Notes: generated by a model from the letters alone, not told the origin. DNA of 64,000 nucleotides from Candidatus Hydrogenedentota bacterium (GCA_045863335.1 BTVY01000004.1:1-64000), one strand, 5' to 3'; counted from the first letter of the stretch, positions 8,820-48,658 are shown. Numbers and translations: made by a program.

Positions 8820-9852
<1,033 letters not shown>

Positions 9853-9881
<29 letters not shown>

Positions 9882-26193: not shown

Positions 26194-26308
26194 CCAGTAC
26201 TTGGTTCTTAGTCATAATGCAAGAATAGCAGGAAGACGCCTCGTTTGTACGGTGCTGGCAGAAGAAGCAGCGGAATGACGGACTTTGCTCTCGTAGGATG
26301 ACCTTTGC

Positions 26309-26435
26309 CAGTGGACTTCGGGGACTTCACCTGGAGTCCTACCAGCCTCTTGCCAATCTCCCTCTGTCCGATAGAATGGAATCACCCCGGCAAGCATTAC
26401 CCCCAAAGTTCGAAGTCTGGCTCGATACGGGGCAC
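26309..26435. repeat. Array repeat R1 (GACTTC iterons + motif + internally deleted recombinase tail + att core)
   Basis: gtggacttcggggacttcacctgg...ttgccaatctccctctgtccgatagaatggaat-caccccggcaagcatt...aaagttcgaagtctggctcgatacggggcac. Confidence 0.9.
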
Positions 26436-30410: not shown

Positions 30411-30416
30411 AGTCTG

Positions 30417-31265
30417 TTGCCCGAACCATCTGAGGCACACGCACGAGCAATCGCGCTTCGGGTACTGAACGAATCCATGGTATGCGAACCCGCGCACCTC
30501 GATGTGTACGCCATCGCGTTCATGAGAAAGGTTCTTGTAGAAGAGGGGATGCTTCAGGGTGCCCAAGGGAGGCTAATTATTCGCGAAGGCCGCGGAAAGG
30601 TGCGGATAGATGAGACGATACCCGAGTTGGGAAGAAAGCGATTCGTCGCCGCGCATGAATTAGGCCATTTTGAACTACACTACTCCAAGGCGCCTCTGTT
30701 ATTTTCTTGCAAAGCAGAGTATTTCGATCTTTGGAGGCAGACGAATCCAGCTGCCGAGCGGGAGGCGAATGCGTTCGCTGCCGAATTTCTGATGCCAAAG
30801 CCTATGTTCGCGCCCCTGTGTACGGGGTGCAATCCTACCTTTGACGTCATTACGGACTTGGCCGGCACTTTCAAAACCAGCCTGACAGCGACGAGCCTTC
30901 GGTTCATTGATCTAACATCCGCCGCATGTCTCGTTGTGAGTTCCAATGCGGGCGTAGTCCAATGGAGCGTATCCTCAAAGGGCTTCGATCAAAGGATTCG
31001 GTCCGGGCAGTCCTTGAGCCAAAACACATACGCGTACGATTTTTTTCAAGGACAAGCGCTGCCCAAAGGACCTCAGGAAGTATTAGCCGCTGCTTGGTTT
31101 CCCGAGGCGCGTCTGAAGCCAGATGCCACCTTATTGGAAGACTCCGTTGGCATGTCGGCCTACGGATCGGTCCTGACGATTCTCCATATTCTGAATCTAA
31201 TCGAAGCCGAGGATGACCCGGTGGACGAACATTTTACACCCGATGGCCGTCGATATCGCTGGTAG
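30417..31265 (+). CDS. ImmA/IrrE-family metallopeptidase
   Basis: RKRFVAAHELGH, EREANAFAAEFLMP, F.TSLTA. Confidence 0.92.
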   Translation: MPEPSEAHARAIALRVLNESMVCEPAHLDVYAIAFMRKVLVEEGMLQGAQGRLIIREGRGKVRIDETIPELGRKRFVAAHELGHFELHYSKAPLLFSCKAEYFDLWRQTNPAAEREANAFAAEFLMPKPMFAPLCTGCNPTFDVITDLAGTFKTSLTATSLRFIDLTSAACLVVSSNAGVVQWSVSSKGFDQRIRSGQSLSQNTYAYDFFQGQALPKGPQEVLAAAWFPEARLKPDATLLEDSVGMSAYGSVLTILHILNLIEAEDDPVDEHFTPDGRRYRW

Positions 31266-31279
31266 CCTGATATCCCCCG

Positions 31280-31304
31280 TTCACCTGCCTCGATACGGGT
31301 CACA
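31280..31304. repeat. Array repeat R2 (collapsed: ttcacctg fused to att core)
   Basis: ttcacctgcctcgatacgggtcaca; the 19-mer ctgcctcgatacgggtcac is identical to R3 and R6. Confidence 0.8.
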
Positions 31305-31768
31305 CGCCTTTGCCGCTCACGGCAAGATTTCACAGACGAAGATTTGGCTCAACTGAGCCGTTTTTCGATTACGGTTGGTGGAGACAACTATTTGAATTCT
31401 ATCGGACAGTTCCGAATTCCGGTGAGGATTCGAACCGGAATTCTTCAAGCGGTCGGGGAAGTGGTGTGTACAGTGTGATTTTTTCCAATCTGCATCGGAA
31501 ACGGGAGGTGAAACGCATCCCTCAAGACTCTGTAAAATCATTAAGCCAACACAATCTCTTGATTTTTCTTGTCTCCTTCTTTTCTTGGCTTGCAGATTGC
31601 TTCTGGTATGTTGGGCAATAAGGACCGACACTGGAATTCCATCCACATCCTCCCGCAAGTCGTTGCAGCCACGTATTACGAATCGCGCATGACTCGAATT
31701 GTGGCTGTAGCTTGTACTAATTGCGCGCCCGCCAGAAGTGCCGTGCAGGGCTATACCGCATTCGTCAG

Positions 31769-32500
31769 TCATCCCAACCATTCCGTAACGAGAAGCTTAA
31801 TGTGTTCCGCTTCTGCCACACCACCAGCATGAATTAGGTTCCGTACTTGATGACCACGTCCTCGTTGGTACCGAAAAAAATACCGCACATACGTCTTTAC
31901 CCACTCGAGACCGGCAAAGCTTTGTTCCCCTTCAAGGAGCAGTAAACATGATTCACCCCTACAGAGGTACGATACAAGAGGTCGAAACAAAGCAGGCTCC
32001 CGACGGATTGCGTCTGCACAGATGAAGCGTACGTCACTTGCGGTGAATGTAAAATGACCAGAGGCCAGAACGTGCAGTCCCAACGCTTCAGCACTGTTTG
32101 TGACTATATCAAGAAGCGTGAAAGAACTCCTGATCGCTTCGCAATCCACCGCGCATTTCGCTAAACGCTCAGTGCATAAACTGCGATCAAGTAGCGGCTC
32201 GGCAAAGCTAGCTTCGGCCCGTGCACGAAAGCAGACTTGTTCGAGTGCGGCCGTAGCCCGCCATATTGAGCTTCGGCATTTGAAATCCTTTTGTTCCGGA
32301 AGGACATTCGCTAAGCCGCATCGAAGCGCATAAAAGTAATCCCTTGATCGCAGATAACCACATGTCGCGTACGACCCTCTAAGTGCATCTGGCTTGAGTA
32401 CCATCGCTCCTCTGAGGGTCGAGAGGGACGCCATGGCGGCTAGCCTAGTCTTCGCGCAACTGCCCAGGACCGCACTTAAGTGTCCGAGCTTCCGGAACAA
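31769..32500 (-). CDS. Nucleoside-diphosphate-kinase-like protein
   Basis: MVLKPDA near the N-terminus and VRNLIHA near the C-terminus resemble NDK motifs; real start probably near 32435. Confidence 0.55.
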   Translation of the reverse strand: MFRKLGHLSAVLGSCAKTRLAAMASLSTLRGAMVLKPDALRGSYATCGYLRSRDYFYALRCGLANVLPEQKDFKCRSSIWRATAALEQVCFRARAEASFAEPLLDRSLCTERLAKCAVDCEAIRSSFTLLDIVTNSAEALGLHVLASGHFTFTASDVRFICADAIRREPALFRPLVSYLCRGESCLLLLEGEQSFAGLEWVKTYVRYFFRYQRGRGHQVRNLIHAGGVAEAEHIKLLVTEWLG

Positions 32501-32936
32501 AACCCTTTACTAAGTCATCTGCGAGCCAGTCACGTACCTCCAAAGGATACAGGGTGATAGAGTGTAGATCCTTAAACGAGACCCACATCGGTTCATGAAG
32601 GTCGCCAGCCTTCGATTCCTCCAATTCCTCACCGCCCAAGGCGACTTGGCCTGAACAATAACTGCAGGCATAGAAGTAATGGTCACTATCGCCCACAAGG
32701 TCGTGGTGGTAAAGGAGTCGATCGACGGACACGACTACCGAACACTCTTCCAGAATCTCCCGCACTACAGCTTCCTCAACCGATTCACCGCACTCTACCC
32801 CCCCGCCGGGAAAAGTAAAATACACCCGGCCGTAGTGCGAACGTCTCATAAGCAAGACGGCCTGTTGGTGGAGAACGATTCCAACGGCGCGGGTGCCATT
32901 CGGCTTATCTAATCGCGTTATTTGTTTCATACCCAT
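32445..32936 (-). CDS. NUDIX hydrolase
   Basis: FPGGGVECGESVEEAVVREILEECS Nudix box. Confidence 0.92.
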   Translation of the reverse strand: MGMKQITRLDKPNGTRAVGIVLHQQAVLLMRRSHYGRVYFTFPGGGVECGESVEEAVVREILEECSVVVSVDRLLYHHDLVGDSDHYFYACSYCSGQVALGGEELEESKAGDLHEPMWVSFKDLHSITLYPLEVRDWLADDLVKGFVPEARTLKCGPGQLRED

Positions 32937-33065
32937 GCTTCACATTATTCTCAGCTACCGCCTTCGACTATCACGTAGACTGTCCCATTGCATACGGCAC
33001 TGCTTTATATGCCCCCCGGGAAACATCCGTACAGCCCACACTAAACCGTAAATTGGTGTCGAAAC

Positions 33066-34136
33066 TTACGACATTCCATTCACCAAAGCCTCCCACATTC
33101 TGGCCACGTGTTCCGAGGAGAGCTCCTCCGCTTCCTGCCGTGCTCTGACGCCCATCTTCGCTCTTAGCGAACAACAACTCAACAGCCTGCAAATGAGCTC
33201 GGTAAATTTTGCTTCGGTTGCAGGAACTTCAGGATCGCCAGCGACAAGATAACCTGTAGTACCTTCACGTACCCGCTCGGCTAAAGCTTCATAGTCGCTC
33301 AGGATGCATGGCGTGCCCGCGGCGGCGCTTTCAGCGGCGCTCAAACAAAACATTTCAGGGAAGCGGCAGGGGTAAATCATCAAAGCGGCCGATGCTTGTA
33401 TACATCGTAAGGCGTCTTTTGGGATCACTCCAAGCACCTCTACATTATAGCCTCCTGAAGTCAGCTTGTGAAGCAGGCGGTGATAGGGCTCCTCTCTGTC
33501 CTTTGCCTCTTCTGCTGTATAGCCCCACTGCTGATATCCACCTGTAACCCTCAGTAAAGCACTAGGGTGCCGATCCTGCACGCTCGGCCACAGACGCGCT
33601 ACAATATCTAATCCGCGGTTGGGCATGCTGCTGAAAAGACAAACCAGGTCGCGTTTTTCATGAGGAACAGGATTATACAAGTCGTAATCCACCGGAAGGG
33701 GTATGTACGATAGCCAGTTTGATGGAACCCCTGCGTCCCCTAGAACACGAGCCATCGCCCTTGAAGCAACAACGATTCTCGCTGCCCTGGGCCGGTACGT
33801 ACTTGCGAAGCGGCGTGAGCCTGAAGTCCGGTTGTCTAGCATCCAGAACAGTGTGGCCAGACGGCCGTGGGTGGGCTGTATCGCTTCTTCGCAGCGAACT
33901 GCGACGTACACATCCGGCGCTGGTGCTACTGACCACTCGTGAAGCAAATGCCAGTAGACCCCGTCGTAGCGGCCGGGTCTTAGACACGCATTAAACACGT
34001 GTATCTCATGTCCGAGCTTAGCCAAGGCTCGAGTCAACGTTACGAGGCAGCTTTCTCCACCGCCCAACCCAGGCATTTCGTAATCTGCGGGGGAAAAGGC
34101 AAAACGCTTGGGATAGTAAAAGTGCCATCTAGTCAC
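33066..34136 (-). CDS. Glycosyltransferase (GT-B, family 4-like)
   Basis: GLGGGE, SS.PNRGL, YPCRFPEMFCLSAAES.AAGTP. Confidence 0.88.
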   Translation of the reverse strand: MTRWHFYYPKRFAFSPADYEMPGLGGGESCLVTLTRALAKLGHEIHVFNACLRPGRYDGVYWHLLHEWSVAPAPDVYVAVRCEEAIQPTHGRLATLFWMLDNRTSGSRRFASTYRPRAARIVVASRAMARVLGDAGVPSNWLSYIPLPVDYDLYNPVPHEKRDLVCLFSSMPNRGLDIVARLWPSVQDRHPSALLRVTGGYQQWGYTAEEAKDREEPYHRLLHKLTSGGYNVEVLGVIPKDALRCIQASAALMIYPCRFPEMFCLSAAESAAAGTPCILSDYEALAERVREGTTGYLVAGDPEVPATEAKFTELICRLLSCCSLRAKMGVRARQEAEELSSEHVARMWEALVNGMS

Positions 34137-34810
34137 TGTATGAGCCCTCGGCGCCTACAACGATCAAAGTGCTCGAGAACGATTTCTGTCAGAACTTCCG
34201 GTTCTACGCCATCGGTATTCAGGACCAGTACATCTGGTACATTTTCTTGAAGAAGGCGGAGAAGGCTTAGGTCCCATTCTTCAAATACGGATTGGTCGTA
34301 CTCCAAGAACCTGTAATTCTCTACCTTGGTGGTGCGGCCATTCTCAAAGTCACTTCTATGGCGGAGGATTCTCACCTGGAATGGCGTTGTCAGAAAAGCA
34401 CATCCGCCGTAACAAACAAGCAAAGACCGGAACGCTTCAAAGAAGTTCGTCATAATCGTGTCAGAGTCGATGATGGCTTTTGCCCAGGCCCTGTAGTGAG
34501 AACTCACCTTTACAGTGGTGTTACCGTTCCGCTCGCAAAAAAGTATGCCGTCTACAAGCGGTCCGAGCAAATAAACACTGCGCTTCAGCGTTTTCTCTAA
34601 CCGCGAGGAGCGTCCAACCCCTGCAAGGTATGTCAGGCGGCAGTCAAGATACTGAAGCGGTGACCGAACAAGAGGACCAATGACAACTGAAATCGGTCGC
34701 ATGCACCGCTCGCCCAGCGCGCTCGCGAGATGCCGAGCGAGCGTCTTCTTTCCCGAGCAATCGAGCCCTTCTATTAGATACGGGCGGCAATTGCGACGAT
34801 GTAGCATCAT
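34133..34810 (-). CDS. Thymidylate-kinase-like P-loop protein
   Basis: LIEGLDCSGKKTLA Walker A. Confidence 0.65.
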   Translation of the reverse strand: MMLHRRNCRPYLIEGLDCSGKKTLARHLASALGERCMRPISVVIGPLVRSPLQYLDCRLTYLAGVGRSSRLEKTLKRSVYLLGPLVDGILFCERNGNTTVKVSSHYRAWAKAIIDSDTIMTNFFEAFRSLLVCYGGCAFLTTPFQVRILRHRSDFENGRTTKVENYRFLEYDQSVFEEWDLSLLRLLQENVPDVLVLNTDGVEPEVLTEIVLEHFDRCRRRGLIQ

Positions 34811-35982
34811 GACACCAGTCTTGGCGAAGATACGGTGTCATCTAAACTACCATGCGGGGCTAGGTACAAGGGTTCACCCACTCGGAGACTTTCCTGTACG
34901 AGCTGTTCTACTTGTGCCAAGGCCACCGTGCCAAGTGAAAGTAGATCAAGAAGGTGGAGAGGGCACGGTGGAGAACTAGCTACAAAGGCGTAATTCCACG
35001 AATCCTGCCCATCCGGCAGACAGTGTACAGGTTCTCTCGTTCTCAACGCAAAGCCAAGATCTTCGAGCGCAGACAGAGCCAAACCTATCCTCCCATATGT
35101 ATTGCCGAAATGAGTCACTCTTGCTCCAAGACAGGAGAGCACCGCCTCAACGATAGCGATGAGGCGTGCGCCCACTACCGTAGTCCCTGAGACAAGTCCT
35201 TCCGCGATGTCATGGAGGTTAGTACTCTTCACTGGCCCTGCCCTGCCCGATAGCGGGTCGATCACAATTTGGCAAAAGGTTCCGCTTCCCGCGGCCCACG
35301 CAACTCGGTATATGCTCAAGTCCTCTGAATGCCCGAAAGCTAGTTTTGTATACTCAGAAGCATGGTCAGCAATGGCCATTCGCGCGAGGACGGACTCAAT
35401 AGTCCGAGCGTAGGAATCCAAAACCCGGGCAATGACAAAACGTTCTGGAGCCTTTGTTAGACTCCGTAAGTGGACATCGGGTAACGAACAGAAGACATAT
35501 CTTGAAAGGTCAAAATTGCTCATGTTCACAACTTCACCCAAAGTTGTATTTCCACTTTCACTGAGATTAGTCCTCAGACAGTCATACTGCATCGCTACTG
35601 CATTTCTTTCAGACGCCGTAAGTCCAGAACCGGATCGCACCCCGTTGTCAAACACTGGGTGGAGAAACTGCCAAGCCAAGTGCGAGGGCATCCACCATGG
35701 CACGTATGCAAGAAAACTTGGGAGTTCGAACAGATTGGCACGCACGGCATCACTCGACGGTAGGGTTGGAATACCCGTACCGCTGAAGCGGATAAACCTG
35801 AGCGTGCATCCTCCCCCTTTTCGCGGTACCTCGTTTAATATTCCGATGTTCTCGCGAACGATACTAATATGTCGGTGATAATATACGGGCATGCGGGATG
35901 ATGGGTTCACTGTAGGATGCCACCCATCGGTATAGGAGAAGCTCCCAGAGTACTCTACTGCCGTCACTGGAGTAACTCCCAA
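34807..35982 (-). CDS. Hypothetical protein
   Basis: 391-aa ORF overlapping both neighbours in the operon. Confidence 0.7.
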   Translation of the reverse strand: MGVTPVTAVEYSGSFSYTDGWHPTVNPSSRMPVYYHRHISIVRENIGILNEVPRKGGGCTLRFIRFSGTGIPTLPSSDAVRANLFELPSFLAYVPWWMPSHLAWQFLHPVFDNGVRSGSGLTASERNAVAMQYDCLRTNLSESGNTTLGEVVNMSNFDLSRYVFCSLPDVHLRSLTKAPERFVIARVLDSYARTIESVLARMAIADHASEYTKLAFGHSEDLSIYRVAWAAGSGTFCQIVIDPLSGRAGPVKSTNLHDIAEGLVSGTTVVGARLIAIVEAVLSCLGARVTHFGNTYGRIGLALSALEDLGFALRTREPVHCLPDGQDSWNYAFVASSPPCPLHLLDLLSLGTVALAQVEQLVQESLRVGEPLYLAPHGSLDDTVSSPRLVS

Positions 35983-37442
35983 GGGGTTAAGGGTGACTCG
36001 CGAAGTAACTCACGATAGACGGCCAGATTACGGTCCAGTTCATTTCTTTTTGCATCCGTGCTCCCGGAGCGAGGCAGGTGATGGACGTGGAAAACACCAG
36101 TACTAAGAACTGGGCTCACGAAGAAACCTCGCGCAATCATCTTAGCTGCAAAACTGACGTCTTCGGGCCCCCAACCTTCGAAAGCTTTGGCAAATCCTAC
36201 CTCTGTCGCCGCGTTGCGTCTAATACTGAAGTTGTTGCCTTTGACCATAAAAGGAAGGTCTACGGGCCCCAAATTCGAGTAGTATCCAAAAGTACGAAAG
36301 TTATCAGTAGATGCCAGCGGGGTAACCCTAACTCGTTCTGGTACTTGCCGGAGTCCCGGCCAGTTCGCGGGGTAAGTGGCAACAGTTCGAGAATCAAGCG
36401 ACGTGTCTGGGAGACGGTCCGGGATCGCAGTGTTGTTGATGTCCTCTCTCAAGGACACAAGTATCAGGTTCGGAAAAACCCTGTGCCTCAACCAGTGATT
36501 TATGATGTAATTCCGCGAGAGGTACGTATCTGCATCCAAGAAGAAGACAATACTGCCCCGCGCAACAGCGAGTCCCAGATTTCTGGCTCCCGCGCAATGC
36601 TGGCGGGAGGTAGAACGGATAACTGCGACCGAAGGACTAATCTTAGTAAAGTCACACTTGGTAGTACAGCCGTCATCAACAACGATGATCTCCGCCTTCA
36701 CGTTGTGCGGAAGTGGCTCTAAAGCGAGCAACACCGATGACACAGTGTTCGCTATTGTGCTATCAGCGCGATAGCAGGGGATGACAAACGAGATGGTATC
36801 TGAAACGAGGTCGAAGTGGGAAGGAGTATGGTGACAGTCGCCGTAGACGAAGTCGACGTTGAAGAGCGATTGACAGAGATGTGCTGCCAATGAATAGTCA
36901 TTGGATTTCCTTTGGAGAAAGTCAACCGTAGTCCCAAAAGAGGCAGACTGGGAAACAGGTGTAAGGTAGCCGAGGCACGAAAGAGCGTCAGTTCCTGCGT
37001 GAATCGGGAAAGCTGCTGCAACAGAGCATGAGGCAAGGTCCCTTGATGCGAACCGACGCAAGTTCTCTAGGGTCACTGGTACGAAGCCTTGAGTTGCCCA
37101 AAAACATCGTGATTCTCGAGCCTTTGTCTCTAACAATAACGTAAAGTTTTCGCAATCTCGAAGTTCGGGAGCGCTAAGAAGGGCAAAAGTTGAGTTCGTG
37201 TTGATAGAGAAGGACTGCCCAGAGGACGAGAGGCGAAGTGATGGGTAGCCGGGTGGTCTGAGGAGCAAGAGCTCGGAATGTCCGAGGCGCCAAAGAATAC
37301 TAGGAATCAACGGAGGCATACCGGCGCAATGAAAATGCGATAAGTCATCCATAGCACGCCCTGTCCTGGGGTGGTTGCACATTTGGAAAGGTATGCTTGA
37401 CCATGTTCGAGGCAGCATCTCCTCAGCTCTCAAAATGAGCAC
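35964..37442 (-). CDS. Glycosyltransferase family 2 with unknown N-terminal domain
   Basis: SFVIPCY, IIVVDDG, ARN.G, FLDAD, FEGWGPED. Confidence 0.88.
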   Translation of the reverse strand: MLILRAEEMLPRTWSSIPFQMCNHPRTGRAMDDLSHFHCAGMPPLIPSILWRLGHSELLLLRPPGYPSLRLSSSGQSFSINTNSTFALLSAPELRDCENFTLLLETKARESRCFWATQGFVPVTLENLRRFASRDLASCSVAAAFPIHAGTDALSCLGYLTPVSQSASFGTTVDFLQRKSNDYSLAAHLCQSLFNVDFVYGDCHHTPSHFDLVSDTISFVIPCYRADSTIANTVSSVLLALEPLPHNVKAEIIVVDDGCTTKCDFTKISPSVAVIRSTSRQHCAGARNLGLAVARGSIVFFLDADTYLSRNYIINHWLRHRVFPNLILVSLREDINNTAIPDRLPDTSLDSRTVATYPANWPGLRQVPERVRVTPLASTDNFRTFGYYSNLGPVDLPFMVKGNNFSIRRNAATEVGFAKAFEGWGPEDVSFAAKMIARGFFVSPVLSTGVFHVHHLPRSGSTDAKRNELDRNLAVYRELLRESPLTPWELLQ

Positions 37443-37549
37443 ACATACCGCGATGGGTCAGCACATGGAGAGCTTTAGCAATTGCAGTATAGCAGACGGC
37501 GTACCAAAGGACATCGTCTTTAAGGAACTTTGTTTAAGAAGCTGACCTT

Positions 37550-37801
37550 CAGTAGACTTCGAGACTTCAGGGACTTCACCCGGGGCCTGGTCTCCCCCTT
37601 GCCAATCTCCCCCTGTCCGATAGAATGGAATGGCCCATCGAGTCAGTCTGAAAAATCGTTTTCCTCTTGACCACCTTCCGGCAAAATGACGTTTTCCTCG
37701 GCAGTTGTACGGCAATGTTTGATCACTCCGGCAAGCATTACCTCCAAAGTTCGAAGTCTGCCTCGATACGGGTCACAATAAGCCCAAACTTCGAACTTTA
37801 G
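37550..37801. repeat. Array repeat R3 (complete; att with 12-bp inverted arms)
   Basis: Three GACTTC, conserved motif, open 43-codon recombinase tail, AAAGTTCGAAGT (37746-57) and ACTTCGAACTTT (37788-99). Confidence 0.92.
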
Positions 37802-37893
37802 AATTTGGCTCAACGAAGCCATTTATGAGGAACGAAAAACCGTAGATTCTGAGGATTTTTGCCTTGTCTCATTGAATCCACTCGGGAATCGAA

Positions 37894-38361
37894 CTAACTT
37901 TTCGAATTGGCTTGTTGGTTTTGATTTAAGTGAAGGTACTGCACATATTTCTCTCTTATTTCGGGTAGCCGCTCTAGGTTCCCCCGGCTTAGGATGGAGA
38001 CGAGCTCGTCAATCAAGGATAGGGTATCTTTGATTGGTTTTAATGCGGATCGCGGATTCATTCTAAGATGCAACGCTACCCGTTCGAGTGTGGGCGTGTT
38101 CGATTTGGGTTGAGTGCCGTCATGGCGTGTATGGATGGTGAAGAGTTCTTCTTCATCCTGAACAAATTCAAATAATTGCTGGTGGGTTTTCTTAGTGGAA
38201 TTCTCGGACGAATCTTCGTTCTCCATAGAATCAAGGGCTGAACCAATAGAATCCAACAACTGAGTGTTGAGAGCTTGGAGTTTCTTGCGAGCATCCGGAA
38301 GTTCGAGTCCCGTTGACCCTTCTAACCCCCTTAATTGTGCCTCAAGATCTGTGTATGTCAT
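37894..38361 (-). CDS. Hypothetical protein (cassette cargo)
   Basis: Helical 155-aa ORF in an AT-richer block. Confidence 0.6.
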   Translation of the reverse strand: MTYTDLEAQLRGLEGSTGLELPDARKKLQALNTQLLDSIGSALDSMENEDSSENSTKKTHQQLFEFVQDEEELFTIHTRHDGTQPKSNTPTLERVALHLRMNPRSALKPIKDTLSLIDELVSILSRGNLERLPEIREKYVQYLHLNQNQQANSKS

Positions 38362-38420
38362 TAGCCTAAGAATATAGAAACAGGGCACAGCCCGCAAGAC
38401 TCTGCCCTGTTTCATCAAAA

Positions 38421-38627
38421 TTATCTACTGGCAGGGTCGCTACACTCGTCGCAACTACCCCGATGCTCTACGCCGCTATTTCCGGTATCCTTCTCGACCC
38501 AGGCATGGCAATGGTCACTTTCTCCCTTGCCGGTAGAGAAGACATCAACTTGATGGCTTGATTCCTTGATGATTATGCGATCATCACCGCTACGATGTAC
38601 TTCGGGCTTTGGAGCCACTGTTTTCAC
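38421..38627 (-). CDS. Small His/Cys-containing hypothetical protein
   Basis: Strong RBS aaggag before GTG; HCH...H..CxxC. Confidence 0.6.
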   Translation of the reverse strand: MKTVAPKPEVHRSGDDRIIIKESSHQVDVFSTGKGESDHCHAWVEKDTGNSGVEHRGSCDECSDPASR

Positions 38628-38761
38628 CTCCTTCGTCTTCGTTGAGTGTCAGTGCCTCCTCTTCTTGCACCCCAATTGTACCCGGCAATCTATCATTTTG
38701 TCCAATTTTAGGACAATTGAATTAAATCTCACTTCGTATGCGGTATATGCGGGATCGCATG

Positions 38762-38790
38762 CCAAAAGAGCCCCGATGGGGCTCTTTTGG
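38762..38790. terminator. Bidirectional intrinsic terminator
   Basis: ccaaaagagcccc-gat-ggggctcttttgg. Confidence 0.8.
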
Positions 38791-39039
38791 TTACGCTTTT
38801 TCTTCGATTTTTTCCAGTCGCCGGCGATGATCGCCAAGGTGGTCGGCAAAGTAATCCAAACGATTCTCGACACTGGTTAGCCTTAACTCTACCCGGGCTA
38901 ACCTGTTTTCAACTTTATCCAAACGATTCTCGACGCCATCGAATCTTTCGTCCACGGCATTAAATCGTTCGTCCACCGCGTCAAAACCGCATTTGACCAT
39001 CAGTGCTAAATCATCAAGAGTGGTTTTCTTCTTCGGCAT
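38791..39039 (-). CDS. Small heptad-repeat coiled-coil protein
   Basis: TLDDLA.MV..GF then repeated VDERF/VENRL heptads; terminator directly after the stop. Confidence 0.8.
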   Translation of the reverse strand: MPKKKTTLDDLALMVKCGFDAVDERFNAVDERFDGVENRLDKVENRLARVELRLTSVENRLDYFADHLGDHRRRLEKIEEKA

Positions 39040-39086
39040 ATTACTTTAAGTTTAATGCTTGTGTGTTGTCTGTCAAGATTGAAAAA

Positions 39087-39312
39087 CAGTAGACTTCCGG
39101 ACTTCGGGGACTTCACCTGGGGTCTACCCACCTCTTGCCAATCTCCCTCTGTCCGATAGAATGAAGTGGCCGATAGGATTAGTCTAAAAACTCCTCTTCC
39201 TCTTGACCATCCTTCGGTACCGAAGCAAAATCAGCCATGTGTGTACCGCAATATTCGACCACTCCGGCAAAGATTGAGTCCAAAGTTCGAAACCTGCCTC
39301 TATACGGGTCAC
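39087..39312. repeat. Array repeat R4 (complete, diverged tail)
   Basis: GACTTC x3, ttgccaatctccctctgtccgatagaatg, tail DPYRGRFRTLDSIFAGVVEYC...FLD*, ctgcctctatacgggtcac. Confidence 0.92.
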
Positions 39313-39385
39313 AATAATTTGCCTCCGGCGGCAAAAAATACCACCTAGACAAGGTGAAAATTTGTGTCAAAAGACACCCTTAGGA

Positions 39386-39541
39386 CTACTTAGTCTGGTT
39401 GTTCTGATACTCCGATTCCTCGACTATTTTATAGGCAACCTCGACAAACCGCCTGAGATTCTCTTCGGCTGCCTCAAGCCCATTATCCGAGAGTTGAGGG
39501 AACAATCGTCTTAATCGATTAAGACTTTCCTTGTGGGTCAT
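39386..39541 (-). CDS. Small protein, paralog of 42325-42564
   Basis: L.P.LS...LE.AEENLRRFVEVA shared with 42325-42564. Confidence 0.75.
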   Translation of the reverse strand: MTHKESLNRLRRLFPQLSDNGLEAAEENLRRFVEVAYKIVEESEYQNNQTK

Positions 39542-39579
39542 ATAAATCAAGGGATTATGGTTTATACACATCGACCATC

Positions 39580-39607
39580 TTGACAATCCCACCAAACCCG
39601 CTAGAAT
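39580..39607 (+). promoter_or_regulatory. Sigma70-type promoter
   Basis: TTGACA-16 nt-TAGAAT. Confidence 0.7.
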
Positions 39608-39612
39608 GAAGA

Positions 39613-39699
39613 TGTGCTTGTGGGCGCAAGCCCCGTTCAGCTAAGGATTTCCTAAGCTGAAGGCAAGCACACCAAAGGAGCCCCTGTGGGGGCTTTTTT
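39613..39699 (+). ncRNA. Putative small structured RNA (three-way junction plus terminator)
   Basis: P1 TGTGCTTG/CAAGCACA, P2 GGGC-GCAA-GCCC, P3 TTCAGCTAAGG-ATTT-CCTAAGCTGAA, then AGCCCC..GGGGCT-TTTTT; no ORF. Confidence 0.65.
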
Positions 39700-39701
39700 G
39701 G

Positions 39702-40163
39702 TTACTCATCTTCGATATTCTTGTCATGTAACCGTTGGCCATTCTTGAGTTTTGAATCCGGCATGACGCTCCAGAAAATAATATTGCCGTCACCAATCCG
39801 TCTGAGAATTACCCGGATCTTGATTTTATTCTGGCCAGTGATGGCGGCGAAGCCCCAGTAGGTAGTCTGCTTCAAGGCAGTGAAGCCACTTTTGGATTTC
39901 TTGCCAATCGGACTCATCGTTTCGCGGAATTCTTGAAGAGTTCCTGATTTCCGAATCACATCAAGCGCTAGTGGCAGCAGGCGGAATTTAAGCATCTGCT
40001 CATCCTTGGACCGCTCTCGCCTGGCTGAAAATTGAAGATGATGAAAACCGTCCGAATTGAGTCTAATCGGAGACTGAAAATAAGGGCAGAGGATCTCCTT
40101 CTGGCGGGAGTAGATAGTCTCGGCCTTACGTTTGTATTCGGCGAACTTTTCCGCTTCAATCAT
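39702..40163 (-). CDS. Basic hypothetical protein, possibly a BECR/RelE-fold RNase toxin
   Basis: GFHHL motif, K/R-rich, C-terminal beta-meander IRVILRRIGDGNIIFWSVMP; the fold call is inference. Confidence 0.6.
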   Translation of the reverse strand: MIEAEKFAEYKRKAETIYSRQKEILCPYFQSPIRLNSDGFHHLQFSARRERSKDEQMLKFRLLPLALDVIRKSGTLQEFRETMSPIGKKSKSGFTALKQTTYWGFAAITGQNKIKIRVILRRIGDGNIIFWSVMPDSKLKNGQRLHDKNIEDE

Positions 40164-40200
40164 AGCGTCATCATAATATCGGCAAAAGCCGAGTCTGCCA

Positions 40201-40268
40201 AGTAGACTTCAAGACTTCAGGGACTTCACCTGGGGCGTACCCGCCTTTGCTAATCCTCCTTTTATCCA
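40201..40268. repeat. Array repeat R5 (iteron half only)
   Basis: agtagacttcaagacttcagggacttcacctgggg plus a degenerate ttgctaatcctcctttatcc. Confidence 0.8.
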
Positions 40269-40365
40269 AATGTGTGTGCACATTACCATAGACCCTTGAC
40301 GCGATTTGTAAGACTGGTAGTATTGACTCTAGATTCCACAACTAGAACCTAAGAGGAGAAATGAT

Positions 40366-40620
40366 ATGTTACTCAACAACACGGAGTTTTGGCTACTTGA
40401 GCACATCGAAAGAAATCAAACTGTGCCCAAAGAACTGTGCAACTTAGCCCGCAAGCTTGCGTCGTTAGGATTGCTTTGTCTTGGCTACCACAGAGACGGG
40501 ACTAAGGTTAAGGAGACGGGTAGTTTAACTTTCTTGGGGCGGCAGATTGTGAGATTGGAACGAATTGAGCGTAGTCCGTTTCGGTGCGCTCTTCAATCTT
40601 TCTTTGCACCTTTTATTTGA
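40366..40620 (+). CDS. Small hypothetical protein inserted between R5 and R6
   Basis: RBS gaggag; promoter-like TTGAC boxes upstream; hairpin plus T-run downstream. Confidence 0.6.
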   Translation: MLLNNTEFWLLEHIERNQTVPKELCNLARKLASLGLLCLGYHRDGTKVKETGSLTFLGRQIVRLERIERSPFRCALQSFFAPFI

Positions 40621-40718
40621 TTGCCCACAATACCTATCTTGTAATGACGCGGCACCTATTAGTTTAGATCAACTAAATGACTAGGTGCTTTTCTTTTTCT
40701 GTTTACGTTCAGTAATCA

Positions 40719-40899
40719 CTCTTGCCAATCTCCCCCTGTCCGATAGAATGGAATGGCCCATAGAGTCAGTCTGAAAAATAGTCTTCCTCTTGACCGCCTT
40801 CCGACACCATGTCCATATTTTCCACATTTGTACGGCAATGTTTGATCACCCCGGCAAGCATTGCCTCCAAAGTTCGAAGTCTGCCTCGATACGGGTCAC
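40719..40899. repeat. Array repeat R6 (native 3' end of recombinase 2 with att core)
   Basis: Closely matches R3; core aaagttcgaagtctgcctcgatacgggtcac at 40869-40899. Confidence 0.92.
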
Positions 40900-42328
40900 C
40901 GTTTGTCGGTTTTCGCCGATTAGCGATGATGTCGAAGGGAGAGGATAGCTCAACCACAACGTTTCTTTCGTTCACCGCCAGGTTCGAAGTCAGCGTTCCG
41001 AGCAATTCTCGCTTCGTGTCTTTTAGAGCCATTTCGTAAAGCACTGGAGCCGAATTTGCCCGTTCGAAGATCTCACGCACCCGATATAGGACATCATTTG
41101 CAGAGGACTCCAATTCTGTCCGGGCTTTTTCAGCCGCCATCCGGTCGGCAATCAGGTTCTCCTTTCTTTCTTCATACATTTTGCGGTCAATAGCCTGATC
41201 GAGATAGGCGTCGGTCAGTCGGTTGAGTCTGTCTGTGACTCGTTTAATCCGAAGTTCCAGGGCTTTGGTCAGTCCGGCTTTCGTTTCTAACCACGACGCC
41301 CGATGCGCATCGATGAGTTGGGTCAACTTCTTCCTTTCGCGATCGGAGAATTCCAGAGAGCCTAGTGTTGCGACTACCGCTACATCTATGGCTTCCTCAC
41401 GGACGCCTTTCGTCGGACAAGTTCGAGAGTGGCACCGGTAGTAAGTGTGCCCCTTCTGGCATTCCCCAGACATCGTATAGCCGCAATGACGGCATGTGAT
41501 GAGTTTTCGGTAGAGGAAGCTATTTCTTCGCGTGCGAACGGGTGTCCGGCCGGTGAGAATGGCTTGAACACGGTCAAAGACGATACGGCTGATTAAAGGT
41601 TCATGATTGCCCTCGAAAACTTCGCGGGTTCGGGCGAGTCGGATCAGACCCGTATAGAAGGGATTGTTCAAGAGCCTTGAAATGCCGTTCAGCGAAATAC
41701 TCGTTCCGTGACGGTTACGAAGGCCTGATTGATGCAATTCCGCCCGAAGCGTGTCCAGCGTATATCGGCCGGTGGCGTACAGATCAAAAGCCCGCTTCAC
41801 CGACGGTGCCGTCGATGGGTCGAGAGTCTTCTTGGCGCCACCGCCATTATCCAAGTATCCAAGTGGGGCAGGCAACGGATAAAACCCTTGTTTCAGCCGG
41901 CCATAGAAGCCCTTGCGGCTTTCCTCTCGGAGATTCCGAATGTAGTCAGCAGCAACGACAGCCTGAATGTCTGCCGATAATCTTCCGCCACGCGTGTGCA
42001 GATCCAAGCCTTCATTCGCAAAGTGGATCTTTATCCCCCTATCGATGAGTTCACCGAGCTTTGCCCAGTCGCGTAGATTCCGGGCGCTACGGTCGATCTT
42101 GTGAATGACGATTCCGCTGGCCTTCCCTTGTCTTAACCGGCTTAACATTTGGCCGAAGACCGGCCGACCGCTCTTGGCCGCTGTCTGGCGCTCTTCGAAC
42201 CATTCCACGATCTCTAACGATTCGCGCTCGCAGTAGCGCACAATGGCGTCTCGTTGCTCCTGGAGCGAAACGCCCTTTTCTCCTTGTTTGACGGTGGATA
42301 CGCGCACATAGGCGAAGACTTTGTTCAT
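40766..42328 (-). CDS. Large serine recombinase 2
   Basis: YVRVST..Q, HKIDRSARN, L.NPFY.G, Zn ribbon CRHCG...YYRC...C, coiled coil. Confidence 0.95.
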   Translation of the reverse strand: MNKVFAYVRVSTVKQGEKGVSLQEQRDAIVRYCERESLEIVEWFEERQTAAKSGRPVFGQMLSRLRQGKASGIVIHKIDRSARNLRDWAKLGELIDRGIKIHFANEGLDLHTRGGRLSADIQAVVAADYIRNLREESRKGFYGRLKQGFYPLPAPLGYLDNGGGAKKTLDPSTAPSVKRAFDLYATGRYTLDTLRAELHQSGLRNRHGTSISLNGISRLLNNPFYTGLIRLARTREVFEGNHEPLISRIVFDRVQAILTGRTPVRTRRNSFLYRKLITCRHCGYTMSGECQKGHTYYRCHSRTCPTKGVREEAIDVAVVATLGSLEFSDRERKKLTQLIDAHRASWLETKAGLTKALELRIKRVTDRLNRLTDAYLDQAIDRKMYEERKENLIADRMAAEKARTELESSANDVLYRVREIFERANSAPVLYEMALKDTKRELLGTLTSNLAVNERNVVVELSSPFDIIANRRKPTNGDPYRGRLRTLEAMLAGVIKHCRTNVENMDMVSEGGQEEDYFSD

Positions 42329-42564
42329 CGTCGCTTTGGATTAGTGATTGGTGATGATCGGATCGTAGATCGCGATTCGGAATCTGTCAACGGTGGGGTT
42401 GTGGACTGATTCACGCTATCTTGTTCGGCCTGCTCACAGATGCGGATAGCGACCTCCACAAACCGCCGGAGATTCTCCTCCGCGATCTCCAATTGTTCTT
42501 CGGAAAGCTCTGGGTACAGTCCGGCCAATTCCGCCCGCGAAGGCCTCTCCTTGTCGCTATTCAT
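42325..42564 (-). CDS. Small protein translationally coupled to recombinase 2
   Basis: ATGA overlap with the recombinase start; paralog at 39386-39541. Confidence 0.7.
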   Translation of the reverse strand: MNSDKERPSRAELAGLYPELSEEQLEIAEENLRRFVEVAIRICEQAEQDSVNQSTTPPLTDSESRSTIRSSPITNPKRR

Positions 42565-42677
42565 GACTGCAGTTTGCCTGAAACGAAATGTGAGAGAGAG
42601 GCAGTGCTTCTTTACCCATCCAACAAGATCGAACGCCTACGATGCCCTCGCCCGGACCGGCACAATGGTCACACACT

Positions 42678-43991
42678 ATGGCTAAGTCATACAAAGAATC
42701 ATCCCTCAGTCTGGCAAAGGCGTCTCCATCCAAACCGCTCGCTTCGGCAACCCTTGCGGACGGTGGTCTACTGGAGACCCTCTACGATCCAATCGAGAAG
42801 CGGACAAGTTTTTGTCTCGCGAGGGAAGGCAAATGGAAGACTGCTTCGGAGATCGTGATCGATCGTCAGAAGTTTGTGCCGTATTCGCCGGAGAATAATC
42901 TTATCCAACACGGCACGGTACTGTTTCCTTCGGCCGTGGAAGAGTACGGAACCGAAGCGGAGTTGGTACAAGACATCAGGGAGTTCATTCGCCGCTATGT
43001 GGACTTGTCTCCACTTTTCGAAGAGGTTGCCGCCTATTACGTCCTGTTCACGTGGCTCTACGATAGTTTCAATGAATTGCCATATCTCCGCGCAATGGGT
43101 GACTACGGCTCGGGTAAGACTCGGTTCCTGCTAACGGTTGGGTCTATCTGCTATCTGCCTATCTTTGCGAGTGGTGCTTCCACCGTCTCACCCTTGTTCC
43201 GAATCCTGGATGCGTTTCGGGGTACGCTCATCATTGACGAGGCCGACCTTCGTTGGAGTGATGAGCGGGCGGATATGGTCAAAATCCTGAACAACGGGAA
43301 TGCGCGCGGGTTCCCGGTACTACGAACGGAACTCACACCTACTCGGGAATTAAACCCCGTCGCGTACTCCGTATTCGGACCCAAGTTGGTGGCGACACGC
43401 GCTGAATTCAGCGACAAGGCGCTGGAAAGCCGGTTTCTAACCGAACGGATGGGCGTACGCCCGCTCCGAGCGGATATCCCTATCAACCTACCCAAATCGC
43501 TTTGGCAGGAAGCCCGAAATCTGCGTAACAAGCTGCTTGCTTTTCGTATTCGAAATCATTCGCTCGTGCGGCCCCTGGAGGGTGTCGCAGACGCCAATTT
43601 AGAGCCCAGACTGAACCAGATATTTTCCCCGCTCCTAAGTGTGATCCAGGAACCCGAGGCACGTGATAAGATTCGGTCACTCATCCGGCAATACAACCGG
43701 CAGGTGATTTCCGAGCGGGGTATGACGGCGGAGGCACAAGTTTTGGAGGTGATGCGTGCGCTTCTGAACGCCAACGAACCACTGTCTGTTAAGGTCATAA
43801 CGGAACGTTTCGCCAATCTTCATGAAGCCGAGTATCAACGAAAGATCACGCCAAGATGGATTGGTTGGCTTATCCGGCAGCGCTTGGGCTTCTCGACAAA
43901 CAAGACCAACGGAACTTTTGTCGTATCAAACCTCGATCCCGAAGTTCTTGAGAGATTGGAAGCAAAGTATGGTTTGAAGTCGCTCGATTAA
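42678..43991 (+). CDS. Replication-associated P-loop helicase-like protein (DUF3631-like)
   Basis: PYL...GDYGSGKTR, LFR......TLIIDEAD, ILN.G, ALESRFL; C-terminal wHTH-like region. Confidence 0.7.
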   Translation: MAKSYKESSLSLAKASPSKPLASATLADGGLLETLYDPIEKRTSFCLAREGKWKTASEIVIDRQKFVPYSPENNLIQHGTVLFPSAVEEYGTEAELVQDIREFIRRYVDLSPLFEEVAAYYVLFTWLYDSFNELPYLRAMGDYGSGKTRFLLTVGSICYLPIFASGASTVSPLFRILDAFRGTLIIDEADLRWSDERADMVKILNNGNARGFPVLRTELTPTRELNPVAYSVFGPKLVATRAEFSDKALESRFLTERMGVRPLRADIPINLPKSLWQEARNLRNKLLAFRIRNHSLVRPLEGVADANLEPRLNQIFSPLLSVIQEPEARDKIRSLIRQYNRQVISERGMTAEAQVLEVMRALLNANEPLSVKVITERFANLHEAEYQRKITPRWIGWLIRQRLGFSTNKTNGTFVVSNLDPEVLERLEAKYGLKSLD

Positions 43992-44012
43992 CCAGTCCAG
44001 TGATTCACTCCG

Positions 44013-44049
44013 TGTACCCCTGCGAAGTCCCTGAAGTCCCGATGTCCAC
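44013..44049. repeat. Inverted copy of the GACTTC iteron cluster (possible origin)
   Basis: gtacccctgcgaagtccctgaagtcccgatgtccac resembles the reverse complement of R1/R3/R4/R5. Confidence 0.75.
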
Positions 44050-44147
44050 AGAAACTTGCCGGTGTAGGCAAAGCAAACACCCTTCGGAGTCGCTCATCTT
44101 GCGGTAAACTGGAAAGGCACAAAGGTCGAAATTATTCGCAAACAAAC

Positions 44148-44507
44148 TTGCATGAAGTGTCATCTCCACAGTTCCTCCCCAACTACATTCGTTCGCATCG
44201 AAAGCAGCTGAATCTGACACAAGATGAAGTGGCATTCTTGATGGGTTGTGTTAGCAGCGCCAGCGTGTCTCGCTACGAGCGTTTTGCTCGAACGCCCACT
44301 TTGAAGAGTGCCCTTTGGTTTGAACACATACTTCAAGTTCCGGCTCGAGAGCTATTTGCGGGCACGTTTGAGACGGTAAGAAAATCGACGCATGCCCATG
44401 CTCGCGTTCTAGCACGGCAAGTCGAGCGAAAGTGCCCAGCCGGTCCGGCTCGTGACCGCAAACTGAAAGCACTTCTCGCAATTATAAGGACCACCGAATC
44501 TCGATAG
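44148..44507 (+). CDS. XRE-family HTH protein
   Basis: RKQLNLTQDEVAFLMG.....VSRYE...RTP. Confidence 0.85.
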   Translation: MHEVSSPQFLPNYIRSHRKQLNLTQDEVAFLMGCVSSASVSRYERFARTPTLKSALWFEHILQVPARELFAGTFETVRKSTHAHARVLARQVERKCPAGPARDRKLKALLAIIRTTESR

Positions 44508-44509
44508 CC

Positions 44510-45049
44510 ATGTCTGTGGGCACGGGAATTCGCACGCTTGCGATCCACATTGATTACCGGGGTTTTGGCTATATCGTTTTGGAGGGCGGGAACCGGTTGG
44601 TCGATTGGGGGACCAAACAGACAACAGGGGCGGGGCGCAAGAAGACGCTCGATGTTGTTGCGGACCTCGTTGTCCTCTACCAGCCTGACTACGTACTTCT
44701 TGAAGACTTGATTCACGATACGCATCGCCGAAGTGCCCGCGCCGTTCTTCTGACGAGAAAGATCGCAATACACATGGTGGAAAGCGGCAAAGATTGCCGA
44801 CTCGTACCGACAGAACTCATCAAGTCCACTTTTCGCCGATGGGGCGCCAATACGAAGCAGGAGCGGGCCAACCTCATCTCTAGGCAGTTGCCGGTGTTGG
44901 AACCGCGCCTGCCCCCGCCGCGCAAGCCCTGGATGAGCGAAGATGCGCGCATGAGCATTTTTTCGGCCGCGACTGTTGCTTTGACGTTCCTTGACAACTA
45001 CCGATTCATAAACGCGCCACAGACTAACCGCGATCAAGATGAAGCGTGA
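44510..45049 (+). CDS. RNase H/RuvC-like fold hypothetical protein
   Basis: LAIH...RGFGYIVLEG...LVDWG, YQPD.VLLED. Confidence 0.55.
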   Translation: MSVGTGIRTLAIHIDYRGFGYIVLEGGNRLVDWGTKQTTGAGRKKTLDVVADLVVLYQPDYVLLEDLIHDTHRRSARAVLLTRKIAIHMVESGKDCRLVPTELIKSTFRRWGANTKQERANLISRQLPVLEPRLPPPRKPWMSEDARMSIFSAATVALTFLDNYRFINAPQTNRDQDEA

Positions 45050-45482
45050 ACCGCGGGTGCTGGGCGTTGCGTCTGCTGCTCGCGCCTGTGGACTCGTCGT
45101 CCTTGAAGGCTCCGACATCGTCTATTACTGGGCCGTACCGTACGACCGCTCCAAGTCTCCTGTCCAGAATTTCGCTGCGATACGAAAGCGGCTCGTATCC
45201 GTGACAAACTACCTTCGTCCGAGTCAAATTGCCCTTTCTATGCGGGAGTACGTGCGTTCTAGAGACCGTGCGATTGTTGATTGCGTGTTCGCGGAAGCGC
45301 AATGGCTAGCTCGCACCCACCAGATCCGGTTCCGGTCGATCGATGTTCACAATAGATTCCGGACCAATCTTCGATTGGCCGAGCTATCCCGTATGTCATT
45401 GCCTACCGGCGCGCGCCGTTCACTTCACCTGGCTTATGAGGCTGCCTGGGCGGTCTATCACCGTTCCAACCGAGCACGCTGA
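45039..45482 (+). CDS. Degenerate paralog of the preceding RNase H-like protein
   Basis: RVLGV....CGLVVLEG..IVYYW, LRPS.IAL. Confidence 0.5.
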   Translation: MKREPRVLGVASAARACGLVVLEGSDIVYYWAVPYDRSKSPVQNFAAIRKRLVSVTNYLRPSQIALSMREYVRSRDRAIVDCVFAEAQWLARTHQIRFRSIDVHNRFRTNLRLAELSRMSLPTGARRSLHLAYEAAWAVYHRSNRAR

Positions 45483-45671
45483 GAACTTAAGCCGAACCAA
45501 ACCGCCAACAAGACTTCTTTTCGGGAGCACGACCGTCCCTAAAGCTGCGAGGACCGATTAACCCCCTCGTGGCTTTAGGGCCGGTGGTGCAAACAAAGCA
45601 GAGATCTTTAACAACCCGACAACTAACTTGCGGCCACGCCTGTGGCGTGGTTCGCAGAAAGGAGAATTGAA

Positions 45672-48546: not shown

Positions 48547-48658
48547 CGATGCGCCATTCAGACCCTATTTGAGCCGTTCTCCGATCCTTCACTCTTCATG
48601 CTATTCTGTCACGGGTATGTACCGTTATGAGCCGAAGTGGCGGTTATGTGAGGATCAG

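Follow-up and report, generated by a model that had tools for sequence, protein, structure and literature searches.

Rec2, a large serine recombinase of 520 amino acids, is encoded on the minus strand (40766..42328) of a 64,000-nucleotide (nt) stretch from a Candidatus Hydrogenedentota bacterium (GCA_045863335.1 BTVY01000004.1:1-64000), which is the window analysed here, and its gene is followed by spare copies of its last 43 codons. We consider it probable that Rec2 stands for a family whose element attachment (att) site lies inside the recombinase open reading frame (ORF) and whose target is the 3' end of a tRNA gene, and that cassettes carrying such a tail as their P' arm have accreted behind Rec2. 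A preliminary description of this DNA had placed the crossover inside the recombinase gene, and this placement holds: it falls at GTGACCC, codons 477-479, as indicated by the boundaries shared among the repeat copies, by the loci L019 and L021, by the homologue P0116, by the cassette S1 in sequencing runs X3 and X6, and by the locus L016. The reading is supported by four independent comparisons of sequence.

Rec2 was characterized by ORF listing, Pfam, a structural model and Foldseek, and by domains and fold it is a large serine recombinase. Pfam matches were found to Resolvase (PF00239, 2e-28, residues 4-148), Recombinase (PF07508, 3.5e-14) and Zn_ribbon_recom (PF13408, 1.9e-8). The N-terminal region contains the motif YVRVST, and the serine is present at the aligned position in 24/24 homologues. 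The AlphaFold 2 model (predicted local distance difference test, pLDDT, 79.5) has the zinc ribbon with an inserted coiled coil, with long helices at residues 329-376, 382-407 and 413-446. The best Foldseek match of the model is the SPbeta integrase complex (9dxd_A, E 3.8e-17), and its matches to the SPbeta, PhiC31, Bxb1 and LI integrases range from E 4e-17 to 4e-11. Rec2 itself presumably catalyses the recombination events at the cores described below. A homologue search with Rec2 gave 5427 matches among 8000 candidates scored at E up to 0.001, of which the best 120 were inspected. Comparison of the protein with 60 relatives returned distant recombinases only (best 52%), and a protein search of a plasmid collection returned 247 records, all below 60% identity, the best (45.5%) on a Sulfitobacter plasmid. 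One homologue, P0005, has ~95% identity to Rec2 within the first ~150 residues or so but 63% overall (alignment read by eye); this mosaic pattern suggests that family members have recombined within the catalytic domain.

The crossover core and the tail copies

In all five copies of the site in the window, homology starts at the same nucleotide, the G of the 7-nt core GTG(A/C)CCC, and the left flanks are unrelated. The five window copies and four external junctions all gain or lose homology at this same heptamer. In the intact gene the core corresponds to codons G477-D478-P479. Core x1 (GTGACCC, 40893..40899, minus strand) is a junction of the P.x.P' type that gives the intact gene, and it is here that a contig of run X3 departs from the window. 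Core x2 (GTGACCC, 39306..39312, minus strand) has a left arm that does not code for recombinase (a hairpin and ATTATT), and contigs of X3 and X6 have loose ends at 39309. Core x3 (GTGACCC, 37770..37776, minus strand) has a left arm with AAAGTTCGAAGT and a right arm with ACTTCGAACTTT, the two being perfect inverted copies of each other. This 12-nt inverted pair becomes symmetric when the AC of GTG-AC-CC is taken as its midpoint, and the sequence at the intact junction is ...ACGG-TGAC-CCGT...; the crossover dinucleotide would lie within the core. The motif TCGAAC lies 16-21 nt past the core in P' arms, whereas in the tRNA-Glu arm and the X3 flank this distance is 10-15 nt. In serine integrases, the zinc-ribbon-domain motif of attB is reported to sit 5 bp nearer the centre than that of attP (available part of PMC3783163), and the shift of TCGAAC resembles this offset, although the likeness is suggestive only.

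The repeat that begins at the core can be divided, on the minus strand, into four parts. Part A is the core GTGACCC with the next 45-59 nt, approximately the first 18 tail codons; part B is the last 25 codons with the stop; part C is a 36-nt box, ATTCCATTCTATCGGACAG.GGGAGATTGGCAAG; and part D is a short variable hairpin followed by GAAGTC repeats. The copies R4 and R3 consist of parts A-B-C-D and the copy fused to the recombinase of A-B-C. Three 43-codon tails (native, R4 and R3) had been said to share one stop position, and re-translation of the ORFs bore this out, their last 43 residues being the strings quoted earlier; in the DNA alignment of the three copies the stop codons stand in one column. 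Tail R4 closes a 63-residue ORF (39179..39370, minus strand) and tail R3 a 59-residue ORF (37643..37822, minus strand). The copies form a direct-repeat family, D1, of 184 nt (37593-37776, 39129-39312 and 40716-40899; 73-89% identical). A search of the whole genome with the recombinase protein recovered two orphan tails at E 6.1e-13 and 9.4e-7, values that speak for homology and not for chance.

Two decayed tail copies add to the three of the preliminary description. At 26303..26435 (minus strand), beside core x5 (GTGCCCC), the first 18 tail codons are joined straight to the C and D boxes, the 92-nt rest of the tail having been deleted, so that part B is gone and A-C-D remains. The other, listed as a repeat at 31283-31325, retains 20 nt: at 31283..31303 (minus strand), core x4 and the first 13 nt of the tail are followed by TGA (DPYRGR and stop). 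All tail and arm copies in the 6.75-Mb genome are inside the 64-kb window.

D boxes occur at 37548-37592, 39088-39128, 26303-26345 and 40201-40240, the last belonging to a degenerate C-D box at 40201-40267; an inverted D box (44017-44053, plus strand), detected as inverted repeats I1 and I2, lies downstream of ORF449. The stem of the 4-bp D-box hairpin varies in sequence between copies while its pairing is kept, and two or three GAAGTC repeats come after it. On the plus strand the C box reads as a sigma-70-like promoter (TTGCCA-16 nt-TAGAAT, 10/12) in three copies (37599-37626, 39135-39162 and 40722-40749), and by direct reading the promoter sequence is also retained in the 26.3-kb copy and in L019. 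The predicted promoter faces the core and is antisense to the recombinase, reading into the tail and over the crossover; in a chromosomal setting it may fire toward tsaD, which a cassette would sever from the tRNA promoter. An Rfam scan of 26000-45000 at E up to 1 gave no matches. An antisense ORF in register through the tail was considered and dismissed as a gene, as it is open in the native, R3 and L019 copies but has a stop in R4.

Empty and occupied sites and the cassette array

Scanning of metagenome contigs with the tail alignment returned four loci, L019-L022. L021 is ordinary chromosome, with genes for Hsp20, PrsW, a class-I tRNA synthetase, TsaD, a thioredoxin-reductase-like protein, FtsZ, FtsA and HisRS. 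The layout in L020-L022 is tsaD, a core with 66 nt of tail, an ORF82 homologue, a hairpin, a core and tRNA-Glu; the ORF82 homologues, beside the core near tsaD, are 91-95% identical in amino acid sequence to ORF82 of cassette S2 (see below). In L021 the core with 66 nt of part A, just upstream of tsaD, makes a 23-codon tail, and the 3' end of the tRNA-Glu(ttc) gene (9105..9177, minus strand) is the core. Positions 1-308 of L019 are 99.7% identical to 8804-9111 of L021, through that core. After it L019, which was examined as far as 10432, carries a full 43-residue tail with C and D boxes, 5 kb of cargo, a truncated ORF449 homologue, an ORF79 homologue and a recombinase core that is 67% identical to Rec2 over residues 1-479. 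This recombinase reaches GGTGACCC and then continues for 34 unrelated codons, the 513-residue product being the homologue P0006. By this alignment L021 is the empty and L019 the occupied site, in which integration has parted the recombinase core from its tail. The segment fused to the L019 recombinase core (7071-7183) has CCGAAC at P'-type spacing and shares TT.CGAACTTT with the family arm after a one-base shift; it may be a diverged, frame-shifted P' arm of another cassette rather than chromosome.

The protein sequences of relatives also change at the core. Translated in the recombinase frame, the antisense strand of the L021 tRNA-Glu gives DPTGNRTPITGLKSRCPNR and a stop, and the C-terminus of P0116 (57% identical to Rec2), GDPTGNRTRILGLKSPCPNR, is identical to this antisense peptide at 16/19 positions. 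The peptides of P0091, P0039 and P0075 also switch at the core position, and their ends fit the complements of tRNA T-arms, as read from the genetic code only. L016 comes from a metagenome-assembled genome titled Holophagales, of another phylum, and its recombinase is 48% identical to Rec2. Here a 200-nt direct repeat (90% identity) begins at GTGCACCC, codons G-A-P, and a second 43-residue tail lies 741 bp downstream with one ORF between; these two copies are the only ones in that genome.

In the window, five co-oriented cores delimit an array of units, of which S1 and S2 have no recombinase domain in a domain scan. All tail copies are direct repeats, so that the inverted repeats by which a shufflon flips 3' ends are not what is seen. 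Cassette S1 (1.6 kb, 39313..40892, minus strand; from the X3/X6 contigs and the ORF listing) has the native tail at 40766-40897, a C box at ~40716-40752, the degenerate C'D' box at 40201-40267 and a hairpin at 39318-39335; its ORFs are ORF84 (40366..40620, plus strand), ORF153 (39702..40163) and the ORF79-like ORF69 (39386..39595, minus strand). Cassette S2 (1.5 kb, 37777..39305, minus strand; from the ORF listing, repeats and alignment) has tail R4 at 39179-39310, a C box at ~39129-39165, a D box at 39088-39128, and ORF82 (38791..39039), ORF68 (38421..38627) and ORF174 (37894..38418). The larger unit S3 (6.5 kb, 31304..37769, minus strand; from ORFs, repeats and domain scans) has tail R3 at 37643-37774, a C box at ~37593-37629, a D box at 37548-37592 and a hairpin at ~31310-31325; its genes encode glycosyltransferases (35964..37442 and 33066..34136), a NUDIX protein (32445..32936) and ORFs of no assigned function. 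Residues 1-477 of Rec2 are the recombinase's own sequence, and the final 43 codons belong to S1.

Logan contigs of four runs (X1, X2, X3 and X6) were aligned over 25800-45500; no RNA data set was listed among the runs with this sequence. A mis-assembled repeat, or an ordinary duplication by homologous recombination, could in principle have produced the array, and the contigs of the likely source run do break at every repeat. Those contigs nevertheless tile the array in the order of the window at an even depth of 15-21, the copies differ by 11-27% and are thus not collapsed or duplicated reads, and homologous exchange would not yield one boundary nucleotide over nine junctions; we regard an artefact of this kind as extremely improbable. 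Contigs from runs X3 and X6, which belong to two studies, cover 39309-40843/40899 (~1.5 kb) with 0-1 substitutions and one inserted T. Both depart from the window at 39309 into identical foreign sequence, and the X3 contig also departs at 40899, where the foreign side starts a tsaD-like ORF (MIILAIET), the same setting as in L021. Because these contigs change flanks at both cores, S1 (x1 to x2, with the tail fused to Rec2) is a discrete 1.6-kb cassette, and elsewhere it occupies a tsaD-adjacent site without a recombinase core. Runs X3, X4 and X5 are equal in size and may be one data set. The tsaD gene of the source genome, G000, is a different gene and has no core site upstream.

The movement of S1 also bears on the proposal that the array is a set of relics, in which tandem complete elements each later lost their recombinase, leaving the tails as pseudogene stumps in immobile units. 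S1 ends in ORF69, a homologue of the gene directly upstream of the recombinase (ORF79), as a deletion of the core would leave it, two arms are visibly decayed, and the ratio of non-synonymous to synonymous substitution rates (dN/dS) among the full tails is ~1. On the other hand, S1 is nearly identical in another genomic context between the same two cores, which requires recent movement of a recombinase-less unit, and in L021 the ORF82 unit stands alone between two cores. The left arms of R4, of the copy at 31303 and of the L021 tRNA site moreover have in common a TTGCC...GGCAAA hairpin and, ahead of the core, a run rich in A/T, unlike random deletion end-points, and look like chromosome-type arms, not recombinase-coding ones. 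We therefore find the relic explanation improbable, though less so than an assembly artefact.

The composite, which lies within a 39.8-kb island interrupting a comM-like gene (see below), is an import, because the P' arm pattern is found in 0/134 other genomes of the phylum (four matches in G000), the tRNA-Glu of G000 matches the L021 gene from base 16 on only and so lacks a matching target end, and the window has no tRNA gene. Viral contigs scanned with the tail alignment gave 44 pattern matches, none of which was confirmed. A search for orphan tails among called small proteins (23-76 residues) gave no candidate; such stumps are rarely called. No tRNA gene was found in L014-L017, L034 or L035. 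In another genome, G057, two tandem family recombinases resembled a split gene, and this candidate was set aside, since the first most likely has a diverged but continuous tail.

Constraint on the tails and a proposed mechanism

In the model of Rec2 the crossover codons fall in a low-confidence linker (residues 471-480, pLDDT ~59) after a helix at 465-472; beyond it there are a confident terminal helix (482-500, pLDDT 70-87) and disordered residues 504-520 with an acidic end. Among 24 aligned homologues P479 and T486 never vary and R481 and R485 almost never do, and the strict tail motif P.R...RT is present in 100 of the 120 best matches. The four full tails (native, R3, R4 and L019) retain 43 codons and the same stop with no indel despite 11-27% nucleotide divergence. 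All of this would be in keeping with an adaptive switch, in which the tails are kept by selection as modules and the fused tail, or none, sets activity, directionality or stability. A precedent exists in Mx8, in which integration makes a new int 3' end that alters Int activity (available part of PMC6070905).

The substitution pattern argues otherwise. Pairwise dN/dS among the four full tails is 0.72-1.25, and the differences are spread evenly over the three codon positions. Conservation of part A does not distinguish synonymous from non-synonymous sites, which is what a DNA site would show, and in codons 19-43 the proportions of non-synonymous and synonymous differences are about equal, this part being less conserved than the non-coding C box. 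The coding constraint for which the preliminary description had proposed a dN/dS check is thus close to absent among these near-identical tails, the wide occurrence of the motif in the first half of the tail and the confident helix modelled there counting the other way. Two of the five arms have decayed by deletion, and arms that diverged while still joined to functional genes would have open frames in any case. Some relatives have tRNA-antisense or unrelated tails, and in the 100 motif-bearing homologues tail similarity tracks core similarity, with no sign of shuffling. We accordingly hold selection for a tail switch to be unlikely. Each incoming unit had further been proposed to supply a replacement tail needed to keep the recombinase intact. 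The first half of that proposal stands, for units do carry their own tail, as S1 does free-standing between the same cores; the second does not, as P0116, P0091, P0039 and P0006 run into antisense tRNA or unrelated DNA. Tail exchange would follow automatically, because the tails are the P' arms of units accreted behind the recombinase.

The mechanism that we propose for an att site within the recombinase ORF is as follows. The family would target tRNA genes at their 3' end, in the nearest relatives that of tRNA-Glu, and the crossover would fall in the flexible linker just before the terminal helix and the acidic disordered end. Since the crossover lies within the ORF, integration would cut off the last 43 codons, which would then be part of the P' arm at the opposite end of the inserted unit; this arm would consist of the tail, the conserved promoter-like C box and the D box. 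Recombinase-less units with a P' arm could then insert as cassettes at the tRNA 3' end or at any existing core, and an element excising from an outer core rather than from its own would take the neighbouring unit along. Repeated rounds would build up the recombinase core, x1, S1, x2, S2, x3, S3, x4 and more, all co-oriented, although the order of the insertions is only conjectured from the sequence. The native tail would be that of S1, and R4 and R3 the arms of S2 and S3, since the Rec2 gene is intact only through the tail of S1. Recombination between two cores would release the intervening units in circular form and leave the core gene joined in frame to the tail that follows.

A further possibility, which we think doubtful but somewhat more plausible than a tail switch maintained by selection, is that the locus acts as a cassette-capture platform with its insertion point in the recombinase ORF. 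Capture and loss of cassettes would rewrite the terminal helix and the acidic end, bring in an outward-facing promoter (the C box) and sometimes a gene resembling a recombination directionality factor (RDF), ORF69, and recombinase activity or direction would be switched according to which tail is present. The two states would be a family-type tail from an adjoining cassette and a tRNA-antisense tail after insertion into a naive tRNA gene.

Several observations weigh against accretion at a site within the ORF. The frequency of the tail motif means either that the split is not the common state in databases or that most members adjoin a tail. The tsaD-side junction of S1 is seen in one low-depth contig (X3, depth 2-5). 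The contigs of X1, X2, X3 and X6 contain no excision or tail-exchange joints, which is weak evidence because contigs drop rare variants. A tRNA gene and a B' arm are both missing from the window, as is a tail upstream of Rec2, and no tail repeat was found within the sequence covered of L017 and L035 (nor, a case that we do not count here, in that of L034). Finally, canonical serine integrases are described as recombining attP with attB only, or attL with attR together with an RDF (available part of PMC3783163). A P.x.P' junction followed by several B-type.x.P' junctions would then need relaxed pairing or capture by excision from an outer site.

The surrounding island and related systems

ORF79 (42325..42564, minus strand) overlaps the start codon of the recombinase and is a candidate RDF. 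Homologues are found upstream of the recombinase in L019, L016 and L034 and also inside cassettes (ORF69 in S1; 11660..12046 in L016), and ORF79 and ORF69 have the motif LFP.LS.E.LE.AEENLRRFVEVA in common. The L016 gene (11660-12046, minus strand), the sole ORF of the 741-bp cassette, has an N-terminus that reads as excisionase-like besides the ORF79-type motif. Complex prediction places ORF79 on Rec2 residues 330-342, 410-446 and 462-467, the base of the coiled coil, with a score of 0.78 (best of 3 controls 0.03), at least 60% of contacts agreeing between runs and a partner pLDDT of at least 59. The mark used for such scores is reached by 58/80 solved complexes and 2/110 mismatched pairs, counts that hold only roughly with the custom alignments used here, and the pass may reflect likeness to already solved integrase-RDF complexes. 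As modelled, ORF79 remains a candidate directionality factor that would bind Rec2.

ORF449 (42642..43991, plus strand) is a divergent conserved partner gene with a P-loop motif in its sequence. Its homologues (44-69% identity) lie upstream of the recombinase in L014, L016, L017 and L019; it has no match in Pfam, NCBIfam or PHROG, and an Atlas search gave a lead to DUF3631 only. Further out, a 353-residue comM-like (Mg-chelatase family) fragment is 70% identical to residues 31-382 of a full 541-residue copy 39.8 kb away (8820-9881 and 48569-50194), and a second large serine recombinase of 506 residues (9853-11373) abuts the fragment. The region at 10-50 kb looks like a 39.8-kb island inserted in the comM-like gene and carrying a replacement 5' part. 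The island abounds in defence-type genes (12369-16829, 24161-25354, 26706-28817 and 30417-31265), namely HerA-like with SIR2_2, DUF2130, a CAP12/Pycsar-type TIR protein, a Multiubiquitin/DUF6791-ThiF/DUF6527 operon and an IrrE-type M78 peptidase. The ubiquitin-like operon sits in the unit between cores x4 and x5. Immediately past the last tail remnant there is an ORF of 145 residues (25552-25989, minus strand), which we take to be the N-terminus of an IS21-type transposase.

Two groups of attP-in-ORF integrases are the closest known parallels. Mx8 reportedly has a tRNA gene as its target. The phage has its attP inside int, whose 3' end is replaced on integration, with integrase activity altered but not lost (IntP/IntX; available part of PMC6070905); Rec2 is alike in both respects, an att site inside the integrase ORF and a new gene end on integration. 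It differs in that Mx8 Int is grouped with tyrosine integrases (available part of PMC4383910) whereas Rec2 is a serine recombinase, and in that no cassette array with several spare tails is described in the accessible parts of the Mx8 papers. The SSV-type suicidal integrases (SSV1, pTN3 and pT26-2) have attP in the ORF and a tRNA target, and the gene is partitioned on integration, with hybrid integrases assembled from pieces of differing origin; tandem integration was predicted to rebuild the intact gene but was not observed, and the type was so far restricted to archaea (available part of PMC7253208). Judged by that text, these enzymes differ from Rec2 in tyrosine chemistry, in a mid-gene, inactivating split where Rec2 would lose only a 43-codon tail, and in that the rebuilt tandem gene, only predicted there, is present in the window. 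In the Rec2 family the crossover lies in coding sequence and the target is a tRNA gene (L021 and P0116). Rec2 would hence work like the attP-in-ORF integrases but is no member of them, because its chemistry is that of serine and not of tyrosine.

Tandem co-oriented units between att-core repeats at one target, with and without recombinase genes, are known from the staphylococcal cassette chromosome (SCC/psiSCC), whose Ccr enzymes are large serine recombinases, and from cis-mobilizable and integrative and conjugative elements (CIME/ICE). The window likewise has tandem units with and without recombinase, bounded by direct core repeats. Rec2 is not a Ccr enzyme, as its scores on the NCBIfam CcrA/B/C models are 63-95 bits and the cut-offs 700-900, and the SCC target is the end of a protein gene, not a tRNA gene. 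To our knowledge the SCC att site is not inside the ccr genes. Integrons combine a recombinase gene and an adjacent insertion point with a one-directional array of small, promoter-poor cassettes; their integrases are of the tyrosine type and use folded attC sites, and the insertion point is outside intI. Rec2 differs in being of the serine type, in having the site inside its ORF, and in that each cassette has a long conserved arm instead of attC. Streptococcal phage-ICE tandems offer another example of site-specific accretion, into co-transferable tandems (available part of PMC13651849). The Tycheposons of Prochlorococcus target tRNA genes and form islands of degraded elements and cargo, 27/937 having a large serine recombinase, but the accessible text mentions neither an att site inside the recombinase ORF nor replacement of the tail (10.1101/2020.12.28.424599). 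In the full-text literature searched (subscription journals and supplements being outside its reach), no serine recombinase with this layout was described. What would be new is the attP-in-ORF layout known from Mx8 and the SSV type together with SCC-like accretion, here in a serine recombinase.

The Islander paper of 2014 stated that serine integrases were not known to target tRNA genes (available part of PMC4383910). The Rec2 family breaks both this statement and the restriction of attP-in-ORF integrases to archaea, and the window contains the tandem with a rebuilt gene, a state that the archaeal study foresaw without finding it. Serine integrases are prized as tools for their short sites, separate from the gene. 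The Rec2 system is a natural setting in which to ask whether the C-terminal helix gates the activity of a large serine recombinase. Other pertinent questions are how recombinase-less cassettes spread between phyla, and whether the 3' end of a tRNA gene can serve as a portable landing pad. If true, a tail that switches Rec2 would give serine recombinases an equivalent of Mx8 IntP/IntX and of the suicidal integrases of archaea.

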